64,000 nt of DNA from Thermodesulfobacteriota bacterium (GCA_034189135.1 JAXHVO010000059.1:7336-71335); one strand, 5' to 3'. Positions 5,500 through 63,929 are shown, counted from the stretch's first letter. A program made the numbers and translations. Notes: generated from the sequence alone by a model not told the origin.

Positions 5500-6750
5500 A
5501 TGATAGGTTCATTATTTGCAGGAATATCCGGGCTGAATGCAAATGCCACAGCCATGACTGTAATCGGAGACAACATAGCAAATGTAAACACCACCGGTTT
5601 TAAGTCGAACAGGGCGTCGTTTGCCAATGTGTTGAGCACGTCCTTGCAAGGTTCGGGTGGAAGCGATATTGGCAGAGGGGTCGCATTCTGGGGTTCAACC
5701 CCGTCATGGAGCCAGGGATCGGTTGAAAATACAGCCAACGCAACGGACATGGCCATAAACGGGCGTGGTTTTTTTATGGTAAATGACGAAAGCGGCCAAA
5801 CTTTATTTACCAGGGCCGGAGAATTTGCTTTTGACAGGAACGGTGATTTACGAAATCCGGATGGTCTCGCGGTTCAAGGATACGAAGTCACCGCCGTAGC
5901 TCCGGATGGAACATTAACCCTGGGTGCAATCATGAACATTGGTGTTCCCAGCGAGAGTACCTCACCTCCTGTTGCTACGGACGAGTTCACCATGGATATC
6001 AACCTCGATGCTGGCGCTGCAGTGACCGATACCTACTCCACATCACAGGTGTTTTACGATTCTCTGGGCAATGCGGTTCCGGTGACTTTTACATTTACGA
6101 GAGCTGCAGCGGTAGCTCCTGCCACCGCAACCTGGAATGTTGCAGCTGCGATTCCAGCATCAGCAGGAACAGGTGCTGCGGTTAGTGTTCCATCAATCGG
6201 ATTCGATGCAAACGGAAATATGATAGTACCTGCAGCTGATGCGACAGTCACCTTAACTTTAACAAATGGCGCTGCAAGTCCGCAGGCGATAAACTGGATG
6301 CTTTACGATCCAGCCGGTCCAAGCTTAGGTGATATTACAGGATATTCATCTACTTCCGTCACTACATTTCAGACTCAGAACGGATTCCCCGCAGGATCAC
6401 TCAGGGGTGTTTCAGTGGATGAATTGGGTGTGGTCACCGGGGCCTATTCCAACGGGCAGATGACCCCTCTTTACCAGGTTGCCCTGGCAGATTTTCCCAG
6501 TTATTATGGACTAAACAAGATGGGGAACAACCTGTATGCAGAATCGCTTGCATCGGGGCAAGCCCTGCCTGGCGTGGCACAAAGTGGCAGGCTGGGAAGT
6601 ATCAGCCCAAGTGCAGTGGAAATGTCAAATGTTGATCTTGCCCAGGAGTTTGTTAAAATGATTACCACTCAAAGGGCCTTTCAGGCAAATTCCAGGGTCA
6701 TTACCACCAGTGACGAAGTACTCAATGAATTGATTAATATTAAGCGATAA
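5500..6750 (+). CDS. flgE: Flagellar hook protein FlgE
   Basis: N-terminal GISGLNANATAMTVIGDNIANVNTTGFK and C-terminal QRAFQANSRVITTSDEVLNELINIKR. RBS GAGGAGGG. Confidence 0.95.
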   Translation: MIGSLFAGISGLNANATAMTVIGDNIANVNTTGFKSNRASFANVLSTSLQGSGGSDIGRGVAFWGSTPSWSQGSVENTANATDMAINGRGFFMVNDESGQTLFTRAGEFAFDRNGDLRNPDGLAVQGYEVTAVAPDGTLTLGAIMNIGVPSESTSPPVATDEFTMDINLDAGAAVTDTYSTSQVFYDSLGNAVPVTFTFTRAAAVAPATATWNVAAAIPASAGTGAAVSVPSIGFDANGNMIVPAADATVTLTLTNGAASPQAINWMLYDPAGPSLGDITGYSSTSVTTFQTQNGFPAGSLRGVSVDELGVVTGAYSNGQMTPLYQVALADFPSYYGLNKMGNNLYAESLASGQALPGVAQSGRLGSISPSAVEMSNVDLAQEFVKMITTQRAFQANSRVITTSDEVLNELINIKR

Positions 6751-19691: not shown

Positions 19692-19698
19692 ATGGAGG

Positions 19699-20030
19699 AT
19701 CGGGGAGTTTTTCAATCTGTACTCAGTTCGTTCGGGGAAGCGCCCATTGGCCCGTATCAGCCTTAACAATCATTTCGAGAAACTGGCGTACGGTCCGCCT
19801 AGGCGGACTGAGATTCGATTTGAACCAGCCCCAAGGGACAGAATCCCACGGCAGCGTTGATCGTCTCTGCCTGTGTGTATTTAACTGAGAAGATAGGGGG
19901 CGTGTACAGAGTGCTGGGATTATTTGTTAAGGCTGATACGGGCCAATGGGCGCTTCCCCGAACGAACCACTAACAATCATTAAAGCTCAAACGGTTCATA
20001 AAAAAGGCCTAGGCAAAAATTGCCCGGTGG
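19699..20030 (+). repeat. Family-1 palindromic element, copy A
   Basis: 44-nt arms 19726-19769 and 19924-19967 are perfect reverse complements (44/44). They flank a 154-bp core. Outer arms are GATCGGGGAGTTTTTCAATC... and ...AAAATTGCCCGGTGGC. Confidence 0.85.
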
Positions 20031-20089
20031 CTTTATACGGGAAACAAGCAAGGGCGCCTAAATGCTTAAAATTAAATATCTATCAGCTT

Positions 20090-37475: not shown

Positions 37476-37542
37476 AGTAAGTTTGGAAGTTGTAAGGTCT
37501 AAAAACGGGAAACCTGGGTGACAAACAAAACAATCGATGTGG

Positions 37543-37877
37543 GATCGGAGAGTATTTCAATCTCCACTCAGTTCGTCCGGAGGAGCGCCCATTTGCCCGT
37601 ATCAGCCTTAACAAATAAGTCCGGCACTCTGTACACGCCCCCTATCTTCTCAGTTAAACCCATACAGGCAGAGACGATCAACGTTGTCGTGGGATTCTGT
37701 CCTTTGGGGCTGGTTCAAATTGAATCTAAGCGAGATAGCTGCCGAACGCCGGTTTCTCGAAATGATTGTTAAGACTGATACGGGCAAATGGGCGCTCCTC
37801 CGGACGAACTACTAACAATCATTAAAGCTCAAACGGTTCATAAAAAAGACCATTGATAAGAAACTCACCGAGCCATC
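37543..37877 (+). repeat. Family-1 palindromic element, copy B (core inverted)
   Basis: Arms 37571-37614 and 37767-37810 pair 43/44. The outer arms are oriented as in copy A, but the 152-bp core is the reverse complement of the A/D core. Confidence 0.85.
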
Positions 37878-37909
37878 AATTATTTTATATACAATAATCG
37901 AATTTGGAA

Positions 37910-38689: not shown

Positions 38690-40567
38690 ATGTTTAAGAA
38701 TATGAAAATAAGTACCAAAACAAGTTTGGTTATCGCCGTTGCCTTGATTTCGATTTCAGTTATTTTAGGTTTTGTCTCAGTTATGCAGTTGATGCGAAAC
38801 GGGAAGCTGGCTGTTGCCCAGATAGAAAGGCTAGGCACTGATAACATTGAAAGGATAAAGGCGGACGGAAAAAGCCAAATACAAGCCTTTCGTGAGGAAC
38901 GCATGTTGCGGGAAAAGGAATACCTGAAGTCACAGGTTCAGACAACTATGAGTGTCCTTAAGAAAGCCTTAAAAGATGCCACATCCTTAGACAGCGGAAG
39001 TGTACTAACTGAACAGGTTAAAAAGGCCATCATACTTGAACAACAGGAGAGCATCGCGGGTTTTATCGGCGCACTTCGCTATGGTCCCGAAAATAAGGAT
39101 TACTTCTGGATCAACGACATGCATCCGAAGATGGTCATGCATCCTTATAAACCGCAGCTGAACGGTAAAGATCTCTCTGAAAGCAAGGACCCGAACGGCA
39201 AAAGGCTATTTGTGGAATTTGTCAAAGTCTGTCGTGAACAGGGTGAAGGATTCGTGGATTATTACTGGCCCAAGTACGGTGCAGACCAGCCGCAACCCAA
39301 ACTTTCATTTGTAAAGCTTTTTAAAGAATGGAACTGGGTGGTGGGCACCGGAGTATATATCGATGATATCGACAAAATAGTGAATATCAAAAGGGGAGAA
39401 TTGGAGAACGAAATAAAAGCGGTTATGGCTGATATGAACAAACAGGTTGATTCAACCAAACGAGAATTTCAAAAAAATGTCCGACAGGTCATTATGCTAA
39501 CAAGTGTAATTTCGCTGATTGCTTTGGCGGTGGTATTGGCCGGGTCTTATTTGTTTGCCAAATGTAATATAACAAAACCGATCAGCCGAATCATAGAGGG
39601 GATGAATGAAAGCGCCGAGCAGGTGGCATCCGCATCCGGGCAGGTTTCATTTTCCAGTCAGTCTCTGGCGGAAGGCTCATCGGAGCAGGCGGCCTCCATT
39701 GAAGAAACATCAGCATCCTTGGAAGAGATGTCCTCCATGACAAAGCAGAATGCCGAGAATTCAAAACAGGCGGATGCTCTAATGCAGGAGTCAAACCAGA
39801 CGGTAGGCCGTGCCAGCACATCGATGACAAATCTTAAGGATTCCATGATCGATATCACAAACGCAAGCCGGGAGACATCCAACATTATAAAGACCATTGA
39901 TGAAATTGCCTTCCAGACCAATCTTCTGGCACTGAATGCAGCAGTAGAAGCAGCCAGAGCCGGTGAAGCCGGAGCCGGATTTGCTGTGGTGGCCGAAGAG
40001 GTTCGAAATCTGGCCATGCGCTCTGCAGATGCCGCTAAGAACACTGCTGAACTGATAGAAGACACGGTTAAGAAAGTAAAAAATGGATCCGAGCTGGTAA
40101 ATACGACTTCTGATGCTTTTGCTGAAGTGGCTGCCAGTTCCGCCAAGGTTGCCGAATTGATCGGAGAGATTGCTGCAGCGTCAAACGAACAGGCGCAGGG
40201 AATTGATCAGGTCAATGTAGCGGTCACCGAAATGGACAAGGTCACCCAGTCGAATGCCGCCGGAGCAGAGGAATCCGCGTCAGCTTCGGAACAGATGAAT
40301 GCACAGGCGGAAGAGATGAAGCGTATGGTGAATGAGCTCGTAGCGATGGTCGGCGGAAGTGCAAAAGGAGCCGGAGATGGGGCAGGATCATTCGGGTGGA
40401 GAAAAATGATTCCAGGCGATGGAGCAGGAAAAAGACCAGAAATATCCCAAAAGGCTCCTGCTGAAACACCGGGCAAGGGAGTAAAGAAGATTGTGCATCA
40501 CCAGGCAAAGGAAGTTAATCCCAAACGGGTCATTCCTTTGGATGATGCGGAATTTAAAGATTTCTAA
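38690..40567 (+). CDS. Methyl-accepting chemotaxis protein with a periplasmic Cache-type sensor
   Basis: Two TM helices flank the Cache-like segment [25 protein letters not shown]...[12 protein letters not shown]. The MCP signalling domain reads [37 protein letters not shown]. The C-terminus is EFKDF. Confidence 0.93.
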
Positions 40568-43094: not shown

Positions 43095-44333
43095 ATGTTT
43101 AATTTAAATGAAATTTTAATAGCCTCTGCTGTTATCTCAGTAGGTGCATTTATGGTAGCGGCTGTCTTGTACATGATTTATAAAAAGACACTAACTTTTA
43201 TGCTTTGGGTAAGATTGATGCCTGGAATAATCATTCTCTGCATCGATCTTTTTACCTGGGGAAGATTTGGCGTTTATAATGTGCTGATTAGTGCAGTTAT
43301 GCCGCTCATAGGTGTTAGCCTTATGGTTGCGAACCTTATCTACGTTGCGAAGAAACTGTCTGTTCCCCTGATACGTATTATCGAGGGCTTGAGCGAAGGA
43401 TCTAACCAGGTGGCATCCGCTTCAGGACAGATTTCGTCTGCAAGCCAGTCACAGGCGGAAGGTGCTTCAGAGCAGGCTGCATCCATAGAGGAAACATCTT
43501 CTTCCCTTGAAGAGATGTCGTCCATGACCAAGCAAAATGCTGACAATGCCGGCCAGGCGGATAAGCTTATGCAGGAAGCCAATCAGGTCGTTGTTGAAGC
43601 GAATGATGCCATGGGCAAACTGACCACTTCTATGGAGAATATCTCCGAAGCAAGTGAAGAGACACAGAAAGTAGTAAAGACAATAGATGAGATAGCCTTC
43701 CAGACAAACCTGCTTGCACTGAATGCAGCAGTAGAGGCCGCCCGTGCCGGTGAAGCAGGGGCCGGTTTTGCTGTAGTAGCGGAAGAGGTAAGAAATCTTG
43801 CACTACGTTCTGCGGATGCAGCCAAAAGCACGGCAGAACTTATTGAAGGTACCGTCAAGAAAGTAAGTGATGGGTCGAAATTAGTGGAAAGGGCCAACGA
43901 AACCTTCAGCAAAGTGGAAAAGAGTGCTTCTAAGGTAGGTGAGCTGGTAGGTGAAATAGCCGCTGCATCTAATGAACAGGCCCAGGGTATTGAGCAGGTG
44001 AACACAGCGGTAGCTGAAATGGATAAGGTTGTACAGACAAATGCCGCCAATTCTGAAGAAACGGCCTCCGCATCTGAAGAGATGAATGCCCAGGCTGAAG
44101 AAATGAAGGGGTTTGTCAGGAGTCTGTCAGTTCTGGTCGGAGAGAGTGAGAATGGAAAAGATAACGAGCAGGACGAGGACGCTGCGCTCATGCAACCAAA
44201 AACCAAACCTCAGAGGCTCGCTTTCGCTGCAAAGATGAAAGCAGGCACTGGGGAAATGGCTGTTGTTCAAAAAAAAGAAGTGAAACCGAATCAGGTGATC
44301 CCTTTGGATGATGCTGATTTTCAGGATTTTTAA
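43095..44333 (+). CDS. Methyl-accepting chemotaxis protein (membrane-embedded N-terminus, no periplasmic domain)
   Basis: About four predicted TM segments precede a signalling domain highly similar to the 38690 MCP ([37 protein letters not shown]). The C-terminus is DFQDF. Confidence 0.92.
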
Positions 44334-56294: not shown

Positions 56295-56342
56295 TTTCTT
56301 AAATTATGTTTATCCTCTTAACCTGTTAGAATTAATTGAGGA

Positions 56343-56668
56343 GGCCGGGGGTTTCTCCTTAAAGGTTTTTGGTAAGCCGTTGCGTTTTAATGATCGTCAA
56401 CGGTTCGCCTTGGGGATGGCCTATTCGCCCGTACAAGCCTTAACAAATTATTACAGTGCTTTGCAGCCGCCCCCTATATTCTGCGTTACGCTCATACAGG
56501 CAGAGACGATCATCGCCATCGTGGGAATCTGTCTACTGGGGCTGGCTCAAATCTTATTTCAGCGAGATAGCTGCCGTACGTCAGTTCCTCGATATTATTG
56601 TTAAGGCTTGTACGGGCGAATAGGCCATCCCCAAGACGAACAGAGCAGGGATTGAAAAACTCCCCGAT
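56343..56668 (-). repeat. Family-1 palindromic element, copy C (whole element in reverse orientation)
   Basis: Arms 56403-56446 and 56598-56641 pair 43/44. The long outer arm is on the left and the short GATTGAAAAACTCCCCGAT arm is on the right. The core-to-arm relationship is the same as in copy A. Confidence 0.8.
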
Positions 56669-56701
56669 TTCTCAATTAATTATAAATACGATAAACTCAA
56701 A

Positions 56702-57424
56702 ATGAAATCAATCTGTAAAAAATTAAGTTTTTTTTCCGATAGTTTCCTGCTCAGAGGAATACTTCATATACCGTCTGCTGAGAAAGGTCCGGTTGTGATA
56801 GGATCCCACGGTCTTTTAAGCAACAGCAGTTCACCAAAACAAATTGAGCTGGCCCGAAGATGCAACGATCTGGACATTGCCTATTTTAGATTTGACCATC
56901 GAGGCTGCGGGGAAAGTGAAGGTAATTTTAAAGAAGTCACTTCGCTTGAAGCAAGGCGTATCGATATCCTGAGTGCCATTGAAACAATTCGAAACCAGGG
57001 ATATATGGGCAGCAGGATAGGACTTTTCGGGAGCAGCCTGGGAGGTGCGGCATGCATATCAACGGCAAGTGCAACTAAAATAGATTCCATGGTTGTCAAC
57101 GCAGCCCCGCTTAGAAGTCGTACGATAAAAAAGTCGGATGAAATAAAATGCCAAGCAGAATATCCAAGATTTTCCTTTGACATATCGGACCGGATTTCCG
57201 GGATTGATAATATTCTCATTTTCCACGGGGATGCCGATGATGTGGTTCCATTTTCCAATGCACTTGAGCTATACCAGAAGGCAGGGAACACTAAGAAGCT
57301 AATCATACAGAAAGACGGAGATCATTTGATGAGCAATAAGACCCACCAGAAGGAGTTCATTGGCGAAGCAGGGATATGGTTTAAGGAAAGGCTGTTTGCA
57401 ACCCAATCACCAAGATACAGTTGA
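56702..57424 (+). CDS. Alpha/beta hydrolase family protein
   Basis: 240 aa with nucleophile elbow GSSLGG, HGDADDVVP and a catalytic His region GDHLM. Confidence 0.8.
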   Translation: MKSICKKLSFFSDSFLLRGILHIPSAEKGPVVIGSHGLLSNSSSPKQIELARRCNDLDIAYFRFDHRGCGESEGNFKEVTSLEARRIDILSAIETIRNQGYMGSRIGLFGSSLGGAACISTASATKIDSMVVNAAPLRSRTIKKSDEIKCQAEYPRFSFDISDRISGIDNILIFHGDADDVVPFSNALELYQKAGNTKKLIIQKDGDHLMSNKTHQKEFIGEAGIWFKERLFATQSPRYS

Positions 57425-57458
57425 TCCCTGTTGAAGGGTGAATCGAGACAGTTATATT

Positions 57459-57797
57459 GATGGGTCGGGGAGTTTTTTAATCTCTACTCAGTTCATCCGG
57501 AGAAGCGCCCATTTGCCCGTATCAGCCTTAACAATGATTTTGAGAAACCGGCGTACGGTCCGCCTAGGCGGACTGAGATTCGATTTGAACCAGCCCCAAA
57601 GGATAGAACCTCACGGCAGCGTTAATCATCTCTGCCTGTATGGATTTAATTGAGAAGATAGGGGGCGTGTACAGAGTGCTGGAATTATTTGTTAAGGCTG
57701 ATACGGGCAAATGGGCGCTTCTCCGGATGAACCTCTATCAACCATTAAATAACAAACAATTCACCAAAAATGCCATTAATAAGAAACTCCCCGATGC
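57459..57797 (+). repeat. Family-1 palindromic element, copy D
   Basis: Arms 57491-57534 and 57689-57732 pair 44/44. The core is about 90% identical to copy A. It fills the convergent gap between the hydrolase gene and cinA. Confidence 0.85.
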
Positions 57798-57814
57798 CTC
57801 AGTTATGCTATTCT

Positions 57815-59062
57815 TTAAGCGCGTAAGAGCTCTTTCCGTAACAGGTCGAGTGCGGTCATGGCAAAGATTTTTTTATTCATTGGGCGATTGAAAGATGAAA
57901 AATGAAAGCGATGTGCGTAGACAGTGTCAGGGGTTGCCACACCGATACAGACTGTTCCCACAGGTTTGCTTTCAGTCCCGCCGTCAGGGCCGGCAATACC
58001 TGTGGTTGAAAGACCGTAAGTTGCATTAGAGATCCGCCGTGCACCTTTTGCCATCTCTTTTGCCGTCTCTTCATGTACGGCACCGTTTTTTTCCAGTGTA
58101 GAAGGGGAAACGCCAAGAACTTTTATTTTAGCATTATTTGAATAGGTGACTCCTGAAAAAAGAAAAAAATCGGAGCTGCCTGAAACATTGGTAACCAGGT
58201 GAGATATAAGACCGCCTGTGCAGCTTTCAGCAATCGCTACAGTGGCCTTTTTCTCAACCAGAAGATCAGCGACCACCCTTTCCATGGATTTACCGTTAAT
58301 AGACACTATCCTTTGGCCGAATTTGTGTGATATCCAGTCAGTTGCCTTGTCCAATAATTCATTCAGGTCATTTTCATCTTTTCCGGTTCCATAAAGTTTT
58401 ACCTGAATGACCGGGAAGTTCGCGCGCAAGCCCAGTTTCAGTTGTTTAAAAAGATTGGGAAAATCAGAAAGTTTTTCATTTACCGCCGCTTCAGTGAGGC
58501 CGAAGGTTGGGATCATCCTGTTTCGACAATAAGTTCTTATTTTTCCCTGAAGTTTTTCAATTCGAGGCAATACTTTATCCAAAAGCATTTTTCGCATTTC
58601 CGGCGGAACACCGGGAAGAAAGAAAAAAAGGCACTTATTTATTTTTAAAGAAAATCCCGGAGCCGAACCGATTGGATTGAATAAGCAATCGGATCCCTTT
58701 GGAAGCATGGCCTGTTTTTTGTTTGATGAAGTAAAAAGGCGTTTTCGGATTTTAAAAAAATTTTCAACGGAGTTTAAAGCTTCCTGGTTGATCACCAGGT
58801 TTACTCCGGCGGCTTTGGCTGCGACCTCGGAAGTTAAATCATCCGACGTGGGACCCAGACCGCCTGTTACAATGCATATGTCAGTGCGGCTGCCTATTTC
58901 TCTGAGGATGGCGGTGAGGATATGCGGGTCATCTCCCACACAACTGTGTCTGATCACGGCTATCCCTTTTTCTTCAAGCTTTTGTGAAATATGAGCTGAG
59001 TTGCTGTCAATCAGGGCGCCGGATCTGATTTCATCACCGGTTGCCAGAATTTCCGCTTTCAT
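57815..59062 (-). CDS. cinA: CinA family protein (MoCF-binding domain plus NMN amidohydrolase PncC domain)
   Basis: MKAEILATGDEIRSGALIDSN and VTGGLGPTSDDLT in the N-domain. ESCTGGLI in the C-terminal domain. Confidence 0.9.
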   Translation of the reverse strand: MKAEILATGDEIRSGALIDSNSAHISQKLEEKGIAVIRHSCVGDDPHILTAILREIGSRTDICIVTGGLGPTSDDLTSEVAAKAAGVNLVINQEALNSVENFFKIRKRLFTSSNKKQAMLPKGSDCLFNPIGSAPGFSLKINKCLFFFLPGVPPEMRKMLLDKVLPRIEKLQGKIRTYCRNRMIPTFGLTEAAVNEKLSDFPNLFKQLKLGLRANFPVIQVKLYGTGKDENDLNELLDKATDWISHKFGQRIVSINGKSMERVVADLLVEKKATVAIAESCTGGLISHLVTNVSGSSDFFLFSGVTYSNNAKIKVLGVSPSTLEKNGAVHEETAKEMAKGARRISNATYGLSTTGIAGPDGGTESKPVGTVCIGVATPDTVYAHRFHFSSFNRPMNKKIFAMTALDLLRKELLRA

Positions 59063-59130
59063 TTTTAGTAATCGTCCGGGGGTTTATGGCAAACATTAAA
59101 AAAGTTCATGGGTCCAAGGGTCACGGCTAT

Positions 59131-59950
59131 AGTAATTCTCATAAATATGTTCCGTTTTAAATGAGGAAACTGTCTGAGTGTATTAGAAATCGTTAAGAAA
59201 GAACATAAGTGCAATATGGTTAATTTATTGTAGAAGTTGTCATACTGAAATTAATTACTCAAGTTTCGCACCCCGGTTTGGCTGAAAGTAATGCCCTGAC
59301 TTCAGGTAACATATAAAATCAGATGTGAATCGAAACGGTTATATTTTTTTCTGTAAGGGGATATGTGGGTCATCTATTACCCCTTTTCGCAGTGTCCGGA
59401 TATTTGGGATAGACCATCCCTTTTATATTGTTTAGCAACGGATAGACTTTATCCCAACTATCCGGACACGCTGCAACCGATTCAATTCATGTCCCCTGGA
59501 AGAAAATAATATAACCCTAAATGAGCGTAAACAAAACTGAGAACTTGTATAAAACACCTCATTTATAGCTTTTTTTAAGCGACAAGCGGCTTGCTTGCAA
59601 CTCTTGCATCAGTGAAATATAAATTATCAAAAAACCACTCAATTTTTTTACCCTGCTGGAAAGCCGATGATACTCCATCTTCATCGTTGCCAAGGGCTCG
59701 CAGTAAATTACTACGGCTTCGCCCTTGGACGCCTTGAATCTGGGGCACCCTCGATTTTCGCTCAATTAGGGTATAACTGTCTCGATTCACACCCTTAACA
59801 CCAATCGGCGCTTTAACAATTCCGGCTCCACCGCAGATAAGGGGTGCGAAACTTGAGTAATTATAATAAGAAAGATAGTTCTTTCTTTACGATTTCTTAT
59901 ATACGAGTTTTTCATCGTTTAAAACGGAATATATTTATTAGAAACAGTAT
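59131..59950. repeat. Nested inverted-repeat non-coding island
   Basis: Outer IR 59131-59274 faces 59841-59950, including an exact 23-nt TTAATTACTCAAGTTTCGCACCCC / GGGGTGCGAAACTTGAGTAATTA pair. Inner IR is GTGAATCGAAACGGTTATA (59326) versus TATAACTGTCTCGATTCAC (59771-59789). The central hairpin is at 59389-59474. No credible ORF. Confidence 0.75.
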
Positions 59951-60055
59951 ATTCAGCACCGCATCTGTTTCCTGTCCACATTCGATGTTCGGTTTTTGTA
60001 ATTTTCTCTTCTTTACCTGCTGCTGTACGGGACATTTCCTTCTTTTGCCTTGGGA

Positions 60056-60835
60056 CTATTTTTTCGGCGGAGATAAAACAAACATGGATGGAGAAACCTC
60101 CACATCAGCCAGATACCTTTCAATATCAAGCATAAAGCCGGAGCCATCATTATTTGAAATGACCAGCTTTAAGGGCACTTGATAGCCTTTAATATGCTGC
60201 ATCGTTTTAAATGCTGCGCGATATTTGAGAGAGCCAGCCGGTTTGAATATCTCAATCGCTTGGATATCTGACTTGTTTTCCTCCAGATAAATTTTTTCAA
60301 CCGTCCCCTGCCATCTTTTCTTTAATACCAGTATATAGCCTTTTTCCGATTTGTTTTTTATTAAATCGGCTGAGGTGTGTTTGTAAATGGGTATGCGGCC
60401 GGATAGGAGGGAAACCACATCGCTGGATCGAATCGGGATGGAAACCAGACGATCAAGACTGGCATCGGTTGAGCGGATTTTTTTAAAAAACGGCGGGTGG
60501 GTGGTTAAATCAAGATAATAAAGAAAACTTCCATCCGTTGATAATTTAATTACAGGATGCCTGGAAGCCAGAACAACAATCCGTAAACTGGCCGGATTGG
60601 CACCTGCCCACGCCACACGTTCATGTATTCCGGGGTTATCATTTTGCCACAGCCTTATGCTACCGATGCCTTTAAAGGTTTTAAGATTTTGATTTTTTGT
60701 GTTCAGAGACGAAAGCAGGTTGGCAGCTTCAACCTGATCTGCTGATTTTTCCGGTATGCTGACGGTAAGGCTTGTGCAGGAAGAAAAAAGCAAACAGGCG
60801 GCAGCAAGGGAAAATATTAAAGGTGTAAACTTCAT
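60056..60835 (-). CDS. LolB-like / DUF4292-type outer-membrane lipoprotein
   Basis: Lipobox LLFSSC. The roughly 240-aa beta-rich body lies downstream of the TPR lipoprotein gene. The family name is an inference. Confidence 0.6.
   Translation of the reverse strand: MKFTPLIFSLAAACLLFSSCTSLTVSIPEKSADQVEAANLLSSLNTKNQNLKTFKGIGSIRLWQNDNPGIHERVAWAGANPASLRIVVLASRHPVIKLSTDGSFLYYLDLTTHPPFFKKIRSTDASLDRLVSIPIRSSDVVSLLSGRIPIYKHTSADLIKNKSEKGYILVLKKRWQGTVEKIYLEENKSDIQAIEIFKPAGSLKYRAAFKTMQHIKGYQVPLKLVISNNDGSGFMLDIERYLADVEVSPSMFVLSPPKK

Positions 60836-63852: not shown

Positions 63853-63929
<77 letters not shown>

Follow-up and report, generated by a model that had tools for sequence, protein, structure and literature searches.

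How a gene-free gap comes to hold some 0.8 kb of nested inverted repeats is the question raised by one locus in a stretch of 64,000 nucleotides from a Thermodesulfobacteriota bacterium (GCA_034189135.1, JAXHVO010000059.1:7336-71335), which is referred to here as the window. The gap (59063-60055, 993 bp) is bordered by cinA on one side and by a gene for a 259-aa lipoprotein, termed lolB-like, on the other. A sequence-only reading of this DNA had described the island of repeats as three nested layers of symmetry around an asymmetric interior, and had suggested three identities for it, namely a non-autonomous mobile element whose terminal inverted repeats are long, a structured RNA of large size, or a segment able to invert. 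The best explanation, to which a probability of roughly 0.78 can be given, is that small, non-coding palindromic repeats resembling MITEs (transposable elements of miniature size that carry inverted repeats) inserted one after another into a spacer that is short in relatives. In the nest, layer A contains B, B contains C and C contains D, and copies or arm pairs of A, B and D are found elsewhere. Thus, a mobile element was the closest of the three options, although not as a single element, as at least four small palindromic repeats are nested. The island itself is therefore ordinary, consisting of nested MITE-like insertions of known mechanism, and the new part is the family of structured mobile elements to which layer D belongs.

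The architecture described before is largely recovered by a repeat search, which returns every layer that had been listed, and the gap is indeed devoid of a credible open reading frame (ORF), only short overlapping ORFs being seen. The outer arms are formed by inverted pairs at 59128-59169 / 59910-59951 (42 nt, 83%) and 59178-59204 / 59878-59904 (27 nt, 89%), while the exact 23-nt pair lies at 59252-59274 / 59841-59863 (100%) and represents a 23-mer found at just these two sites in 64 kb, with 0.00 expected. The inner 19-nt pair exists as well, but it is shifted by 1-2 nt and is 90% complementary rather than exact (59324-59343 / 59772-59791, 20 nt). The central two-step hairpin (59392-59411 / 59450-59469, 20 nt, 95%) and the CCAAGGGC/GCCCTTGG hairpin are both present, and two further pairs, at 59337-59365 / 59488-59516 (83%) and 59514-59531 / 59755-59772 (89%), had been missed. 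As to the interior that had been called asymmetric, it is actually organised, being made of one 257-nt inserted element and the remainder of a long hairpin. When folded as a whole, 59110-59970 reaches -286 kcal/mol on the plus strand (shuffles -193 +/- 6; z = -16.0) and -299 kcal/mol on the minus strand (shuffles around -204; z = -12.0). The hallmarks of RNase P RNA, transfer-messenger RNA, signal recognition particle RNA and group II introns, already reported as absent, are not detected by Rfam either: only a tRNA at 63853-63926 passes the gathering threshold in the window, and the island is without a relevant match, families including HEARO, OLE, GOLLD and ROOL having no score at that threshold within it. 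Under permissive settings (Rfam 15, 58900-60200, E <= 10) the best match has E = 0.05 and is an artefact of a microRNA model on the apical hairpin of layer C. No match to the island was found by BLAST in an annotated phage collection. Sigma-70-like promoters predicted on both strands of 58950-60150 amount to 0, vs 3.0 +/- 1.9 in shuffles; this shortage is mild, in an AT-rich spacer that must supply the cinA promoter unless cinA is read through from upstream.

The layers of the nest can be separated in silico. D splits one arm of layer C directly after GTTATA (minus strand), and upon removal of D and one TTATA, TGTGAATCGAGACAGTTATA joins TTATTTTCTTCCAGGGGACATG in a continuous hairpin of 212 nt (-97 kcal/mol). 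Layer C in turn sits in the exact middle of B, which without C is a 144-nt hairpin of -57.6 kcal/mol, and B occupies the loop at the centre of A, which measures 218 nt (-55 kcal/mol) once its inserts are taken out. No G·U strand bias is present in A, B or C. In parallel, the layers occur on their own in other genomes. With the CinA protein as query, 80 loci of Desulfobacterales were obtained (sequences of the comparison set carry L numbers). When the island was compared with these by blastn, its interior was detected in L025, L037 and L040, where the copies of D carry compensatory differences in the CCAAGGGC/GCCCTTGG hairpin, and the arms of layer A in L015. In this last locus the arms (6063-6108 and 6163-6224) are without insert, about 55 nt apart, and form a small intergenic palindrome, and the terminal 30 nt of A recur in L041 (2721-2750). 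Inverted pairs of the layer B motif CTCAAGTTTCGCAC, about 93 nt apart, are found at an unrelated site of L040 (4007/4101) and in L005 (9870/9962), a relative with 77% identity in which they occupy the orthologous spacer between the lolB-like gene and cinA. The interiors of these two pairs (L005 9870-9975 and L040 4001-4125) are unrelated, and single copies of the motif are seen in L038 (12660) and L186 (14314); CTCAAGTTTCGCAC could mark a MITE family defined by termini alone or a recurring protein-binding site. A 17-nt direct repeat with 16/17 identical positions, GGATATG(C/T)GGGTCATCT, is shared by the coding region of cinA (58918-58934) and an arm of layer C (59359-59375), and may be due to chance.

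The junction has been compared with that of the closest relatives, whose CinA proteins are 85% (L003), 82% (L004) and 77% (L005) identical. As these are Desulfobacterales, the source can be considered an uncultured member of this group. The spacer between the lolB-like gene and cinA measures 230 nt in L003, 143 nt in L005 and 140 nt in L052, and none of the layers A, C and D is found in these three spacers. The island is thus lineage-specific, being present in the source and absent at the orthologous junction of relatives. Two independent short-read assemblies (Logan SRR24907504/5), with identical CinA and lolB-like proteins, reproduce both outer junctions, so that a fold-back artefact of assembly can be discarded. 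In particular, unitig L204 stops at 59917, about 34 nt inside the lolB-like-proximal arm of A, and unitig L001 begins at 59155, about 30 nt inside the cinA-proximal arm. Breaks at such a distance fit what is expected of a k = 31 graph at repeated or polymorphic sequence, and they agree alike with a multi-copy layer A and with a presence/absence polymorphism.

A sequence of events can be proposed for the formation of the nest. A palindromic element A of about 215 nt would first have inserted between the lolB-like gene and cinA, and an element B of about 144 nt, with CTCAAGTTTCGCAC terminal repeats, would then have entered the central loop of A. The 212-nt long-hairpin element C would have followed into the exact middle of B, and the 257-nt D would finally have inserted into one arm of C, duplicating TTATA. 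By its terminal motif, C is related to a lineage-specific repeat family that also flanks the other side of cinA. D would be moved by a transposase acting in trans, through staggered cuts of 5 bp at TNNNA in one subfamily (GAGCG) and of 4 bp in the other (TTGCA), and all members of its family keep the same multi-helix fold on one strand. As each element is a hairpin and 3/4 insertions lie near the centre of the predecessor, the outcome looks like one multi-layer palindrome of 0.82 kb.

Layer D is the member of the nest whose family can be characterized best by its copies. An exact pattern, CAAGGCGTC-N6-7-GAAGCYGTA-N40-70-GCTTTCC, which recovers 4/4 known copies, is present in at least 120 metagenome contigs, with one match per contig; viral contigs gave 0 matches, and a BLAST search of an annotated plasmid collection returned no match to D. 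All copies start sharply at (A)CCC(T/C)AA, upstream of which the DNA is unrelated, and most of them end around 260 nt downstream in sequence complementary to the start, with a copy length of 257-262 nt. A hidden Markov model (HMM) built from 41 distinct full copies gave 191 matches in an nhmmer search of 1.84 Mb, including second copies on several contigs. The copy in the window is single and full-length, and it is the top-scoring match (59514-59772, minus strand, 222 bits). By the same search, D is found in five Desulfobacterales genomes (L025, L037, L040, L035 and L022). Two subfamilies, GAGCG and TTGCA, differ in their termini (CCCTAATTGAGCG / CGCTCAATTAGGG or CCCCAACGTTGCA / TGCAACGTTGGGG) and have the internal domain in common, and 98.4% of the cells of helix 1 are paired. 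D is abundant in sediment Desulfobacterales. The family is absent from Rfam 15, and neither D motifs nor Desulfobacterales MITEs of such kind were met in the literature searched; it is apparently widespread and undescribed.

Some copies depart from the common layout. Two tandem copies are present in L137 (362-640), an additional GC-rich hairpin follows CCCCAG in L109, L110 and L122, a 22-nt tandem duplication is found in L040 (240-300), and a helix tip is lengthened in L172; variant insertions are placed at helix tips and loops, as RNA families show. A copy with an identical TTGAA duplication lies in L025 (11998-12258) and L023 (5818-5870) between the genes for an rlmD-like methyltransferase and an alpha/beta-hydrolase, a spacer that in the window holds instead a copy (56333-56720) of a different repeat, c57. 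Around cinA and the hydrolase gene there are three spacers, and repeats of different kinds have landed in them recurrently.

Several lines of evidence indicate that D is mobile. Its copies lie between genes and often leave only a few bases of the spacer free, they stand in every orientation with respect to the flanking ORFs (--28, ++22, -+12, +-11), and clustering of the neighbour proteins gave no recurrent neighbour among the matches listed; some contigs contain two copies. In the GAGCG subfamily the flanking pentamers are identical in 20/50 distinct copies, where 1.7 are expected from shuffled partners, and the duplicated sequences vary yet fit TNNNA (TTATA, TTACA, TTTAA, TAGAA and others). 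In the TTGCA subfamily it is a tetramer that is identical on both flanks, in 23/35 copies vs 2.9 expected, and a pentamer never is. In either case the duplications directly abut the CCC...GGG ends. Duplications whose length is fixed and whose sequence varies betray a transposase or integrase that cuts in a staggered way. Apart from a parental insertion sequence, D has all the properties of a MITE that were tested, as it is short and non-coding, with terminal inverted repeats (TIRs), fixed-length variable duplications and dispersed copies at unrelated sites.

The corresponding enzyme was sought through partial and paired D ends (L152), clustering of the neighbour proteins and of all ORFs of at least 220 aa, and tblastn. 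No autonomous insertion sequence (IS) with D termini was detected among the 191 nhmmer matches or elsewhere in the 1.84 Mb, and no transposase is linked to D among the at least 120 pattern matches. The terminal repeat of ISEcp1, a member of the IS1380 family, is CCTAGATTC, ending CCTAGA, and this element duplicates 5 bp of its target. The TIRs of piggyBac begin with CCC and its duplications are of the TTAA type, IS1380 being the prokaryotic relative or outgroup (PMC10813416). D resembles these elements in ends that begin CC(C)TA and in duplications of 4-5 bp at AT-rich, TTAA-like targets, but the likeness is limited to 5-6 terminal bases together with the length and composition of the duplication, and no transposase of this type was detected in the window or in the 1.84 Mb of related contigs. 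Other assignments were considered and rejected. An IS200/IS605-type or PATE element is at odds with variable duplicated 4-5-mers that flank both ends, a retron with neighbours that are unrelated housekeeping genes and do not include a reverse transcriptase gene, and a cis-regulatory RNA with the occurrence of D in all orientations beside unrelated neighbours, with no preference.

The most distinctive property of D is its fold. A consensus structure of 61 pairs in 9 helices was derived with RNAalifold from the 41-sequence alignment. It comprises a terminal helix in which the two ends pair, a 5' domain that is long and irregular and in which CAAGGCGUC, GAAGC, CAAC and GCUUUCC stay unpaired and invariant, a small CCC/GGG hairpin, and a 14-bp long-range helix (AAACAAAAUGGAG / CUCCAUUUUGUUU) around some 100 variable AT-rich nt. 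Standard pairs are found in 96.7% of cells, as compared with 88.9 +/- 0.3% in column shuffles and 36-46% in registers slid by 1-3 columns, 31/61 pairs are changed on both sides (17.6 +/- 2.1 in shuffles), and compensatory cells number 203 vs 49.5 in shuffles, the observed measures being reached by 0/500 shuffles; as the structure comes from the same alignment and the sequences are related, these controls overstate significance somewhat, and the margin is large. Moreover, G·U cells number 182 vs 21 A·C cells, and 20 vs 2 in the terminal helix. The bias is seen in 7/8 helix groups tallied, the small CCC/GGG hairpin (H8; 1 G·U, 0 A·C) being uninformative, and U·G and C-G replace one another at several positions, as do G·U and G-C. 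Since neutral decay of a DNA duplex would equalise the types of mismatch, the excess of G·U over A·C indicates that the pairing of D is selected on one strand, which in the window is the minus strand, where cinA and the lolB-like gene are also encoded. Folded singly, the copy in the window adopts the consensus architecture (z = -4.9). No conserved reading frame is present in D, as no frame is open in most copies and lengths vary modulo 3; a 71-aa ORF that overlies D (59575-59790, minus strand) was rejected as coding on the same ground, its frame not being conserved. The earlier suggestion of a large structured RNA is not supported for the whole 0.8 kb, given that close relatives are without the island and the layers occur independently, and it holds for the innermost 257 nt, about 30% of the island.

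D is the one layer with evidence of function beyond mobility. As D favours no orientation and no kind of neighbour, its fold is no cis-regulator of adjacent genes. With moderate to low confidence, the fold may have a role in the propagation or control of the element itself, as RNA or single-stranded DNA; this is favoured by the finding that termini and duplication length differ while the fold is common, the reverse of the usual MITE pattern. A bolder proposal, tentative and somewhat unlikely, is that D represents a new class of mobile elements in Desulfobacterales, the fold being an active RNA or single-stranded DNA intermediate needed for its own mobilisation or regulation and not a remnant, and the subfamilies having swapped termini and partner transposases with the fold kept. 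If so, it might serve as a recognition structure for the enzyme that mobilises D, act as a ribozyme or as an RNA of guide-like type, or constitute a small-RNA gene that is mobile.

An unlikely origin of the fold is a passive relic without present function, namely the structured 5' leader of the transposase mRNA of a parental IS, carried along by internal-deletion MITEs of two related IS lineages. Two such lineages would account for subfamilies that have a common internal domain and differ in termini and duplications (5 vs 4 bp), but the G·U bias reaches the terminal helix of both ends, which a leader alone would not need. Most copies also have, at the end of the 5' domain, a Shine-Dalgarno-like AAGGGU, an A-rich spacer and an AUG; however, many copies no longer have the AUG while compensatory change preserves their pairing, and a transposase ORF follows none of the at least 120 pattern matches, which target that domain. 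ISEcp1 likewise has a leader, of about 185 nt from the terminal repeat to the start codon, but it is not notably structured (z = -1.1).

Some observations weigh against successive insertion, or against parts of it. A clean empty site is not available, as the spacers of L003, L005 and L052 are too diverged for base-by-base alignment; across the 1.84 Mb examined, a full copy of layer C on its own is not found; and target-site duplications of A, B and C are not evident on inspection by eye. The B-type repeat in the orthologous gap of L005 suits recurrent insertion or an ancestral or functional B site, and it fits a simple outside-in order less comfortably. For layer D, an IS1380/piggyBac-type enzyme is suggested by end and duplication signatures only, and the ISEcp1 transposase as tblastn query met just noise (E >= 0.9) in the window and 203 loci, a weak negative given the small sample and the poor assembly of IS copies. 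Furthermore, no sigma-70-like promoter that might drive transcription of D is predicted in the island.

Among the other explanations of the whole island, an invertible DNA switch, in which recombination between the arms would flip the interior and alter the expression of cinA, is very improbable. Its natural substrate would be the exact 23-bp inverted pair, whose identity is fully explained by the terminal repeats of B, also present in L005 and L040. The public unitigs that end inside the outer arms would suit inversion as well, but breaks about 30 nt inside the arms of A fit repeat copies at k = 31. Inversion between repeats seems to occur in this genome, as indicated by the neighbouring c57 family with its perfect 44-bp arms and one flipped loop, yet the island has one orientation in the assembly, no promoter-like site is predicted in its interior, genes for a recombinase or invertase are absent for about 12 kb around it, and the ten largest ORFs of 47.8-63.8 kb contain no recombinase domain. 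Finally, it is hardly credible that a single gene for a large, structured non-coding RNA takes up the whole island (about 59128-59951), its architecture being the nested helices, as the extreme predicted stability of the island on both strands (z = -16, -12), the covariation of its innermost part and its co-direction with the flanking genes are set against an orthologous junction without island in the closest relatives, the separate occurrence of A, B and D in other genomes, outer arms that are long near-perfect duplexes without G·U strand bias, typical of DNA repeats, a target-site duplication that D carries inside the structure, and no Rfam match.

Table 1. Coordinates of the nested layers and of the genes that border them
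Feature	Position or sequence	Strand	Remarks
cinA	57815-59062	minus	Pfam CinA, MoCF_biosynth and CinA_KH domains
Layer A arm, cinA-proximal	59128-59204		pairs with 59878-59951; 77 nt, 79% complementary
Layer A central segment, cinA side of B insertion	59205-59251		last 13 nt align with centre of L015 copy
Layer B arm TAATTACTCAAGTTTCGCACCCC	59252-59274		exact complement of 59841-59863
Layer B interior, cinA side	59275-59323		by subtraction
Layer C uninterrupted arm	59324-59365		pairs with 59772-59794 and 59488-59509 after removal of D
Layer C apical two-step hairpin GTGTCCGGATATTTGGGATA / TATCCCAACTATCCGGACAC	59392-59469		20 nt, 95%; fold
Layer C interrupted arm, distal half	59488-59509		
D target-site duplication copy 2, TTATA	59510-59514	minus	
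Layer D, structured mobile element, CCC...GGG ends, GAGCG subfamily	59515-59771	minus	257 nt
Layer D P1/TIR	CCCTAATTGAGCG / CGCTCATTTAGGG	minus	
Layer D conserved 5' domain	about 59638-59757	minus	
Layer D long-range helix	AAAAAAAUUGAG / CUCAGUUUUGUUU	minus	around variable AT-rich region
D target-site duplication copy 1, TTATA	59772-59776	minus	also forms the inner end of the C arm's proximal half
Layer C interrupted arm, proximal half	59772-59794		GGGTGTGAATCGAGACAGTTATA on minus strand
Layer B interior, lolB-like side	59795-59840		by subtraction
Layer B arm GGGGTGCGAAACTTGAGTAATTA	59841-59863		
Layer A central segment, lolB-like side of B insertion	59864-59877		
Layer A arm, lolB-like-proximal	59878-59951		pairs with 59128-59204
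lolB-like gene, 259-aa lipoprotein	60056-60835	minus	DUF4292 match just under cutoff

Judged from its sequence, the label given to the lipoprotein gene (Table 1) is plausible but unproven. The other repeats of the window include the c57 family, of which four copies are present in the 64 kb (19692-20046, 37538-37888, 56333-56720 and 57438-57811). Each of them consists of an outer imperfect inverted repeat, an inner inverted repeat of 44-45 nt and a loop of 151-154 nt; the inner repeat is 98-100% perfect within a copy, and the stems differ at 4-12 positions between copies. At 37571-37809 the loop runs as the reverse complement while the flanks of this copy remain collinear (compared with the 19.7-kb copy, loop identity is 0.86 in reverse complement and 0.56 in direct orientation), which implies either an inversion or a homogenisation of arms, in both cases between the perfect repeats. 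In 202 other loci no copy of the family is present, and it has no Rfam match. A 29-nt motif, GGGTGAATCGAGACAGTTATA..., is common to the left end of c57 (57429-57458) and the end of layer C (59772-59800), and 19 nt of it (57438-57456) are the exact reverse complement of the layer C end (59772-59794); thus, related element ends lie inverted to one another on either side of cinA, at a distance of 2.3 kb. Logan unitigs L001/L002 and L204 also break in the right 44-nt stem of the c57 copy, at about 57700, and together with the breaks in the arms of A this leaves cinA alone on a 1.45-kb contig in the SRR24907504/5 assemblies. Repeat nests of this type explain why cinA is flanked by breaks on its two sides in the public assemblies of the lineage. 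Elsewhere in the window, diverged direct repeats of 74-79% identity about 3.79 kb apart (39587-40089 vs 43374-43876, and 40507-40567 vs 44273-44333) look like the product of a tandem duplication of a gene block.

For annotation, the island teaches that a striking 0.8-kb multi-layer palindrome can be just a stack of small repeats. Layer D in turn provides a testable case for the question of a structured RNA on which a small mobile element may depend, or which it may spread, and its subfamilies, with a common fold and different termini and duplication lengths, are a natural experiment on how non-autonomous elements switch transposase partners. The comparison with known systems helps in placing it. 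Like retron msr/msd, D has a terminal a1/a2-like pairing that closes a conserved 5' domain and a long variable 3' hairpin, but it has no adjacent reverse transcriptase, its neighbours are unrelated and target-site duplications are present at its flanks. With the large RNAs of Rfam (OLE, GOLLD, ROOL, HEARO/IscB omega RNA, raiA and group II introns) it shares size and covariation, whereas it has no covariance-model match at E <= 10, is mobile with duplications, and shows neither an associated protein gene nor an orientation bias. IS200/IS605 and PATE elements, REP/RAYT and integron attC sites similarly use a structure on one strand and tolerate G·T pairs; however, they generate no duplication, have fixed target or cleavage motifs and rely on hairpins of about 20-140 nt, in contrast with the variable 4-5-bp duplications and the 260-nt multi-helix fold of D. 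The closest likeness in genetic behaviour is to bacterial MITEs and nested MITEs (Correia/NEMIS, ERIC, RUP, Nezha and MITEAba12), which are short and non-coding, have TIRs and fixed-length duplications, are present in many dispersed intergenic copies, are moved by a transposase in trans, land in one another and in AT-rich spacers, and can fold as hairpins once transcribed. Ordinary families of this kind conserve their termini while the interior drifts, whereas D, whose parental IS was not found, keeps a multi-branched fold, in which 31 pairs covary and G·U exceeds A·C about 9:1, across subfamilies with differing termini. D thus joins the clean hallmarks of a transposon with RNA-grade covariation and a strong G·U bias, a combination that is unusual for bacterial MITEs.

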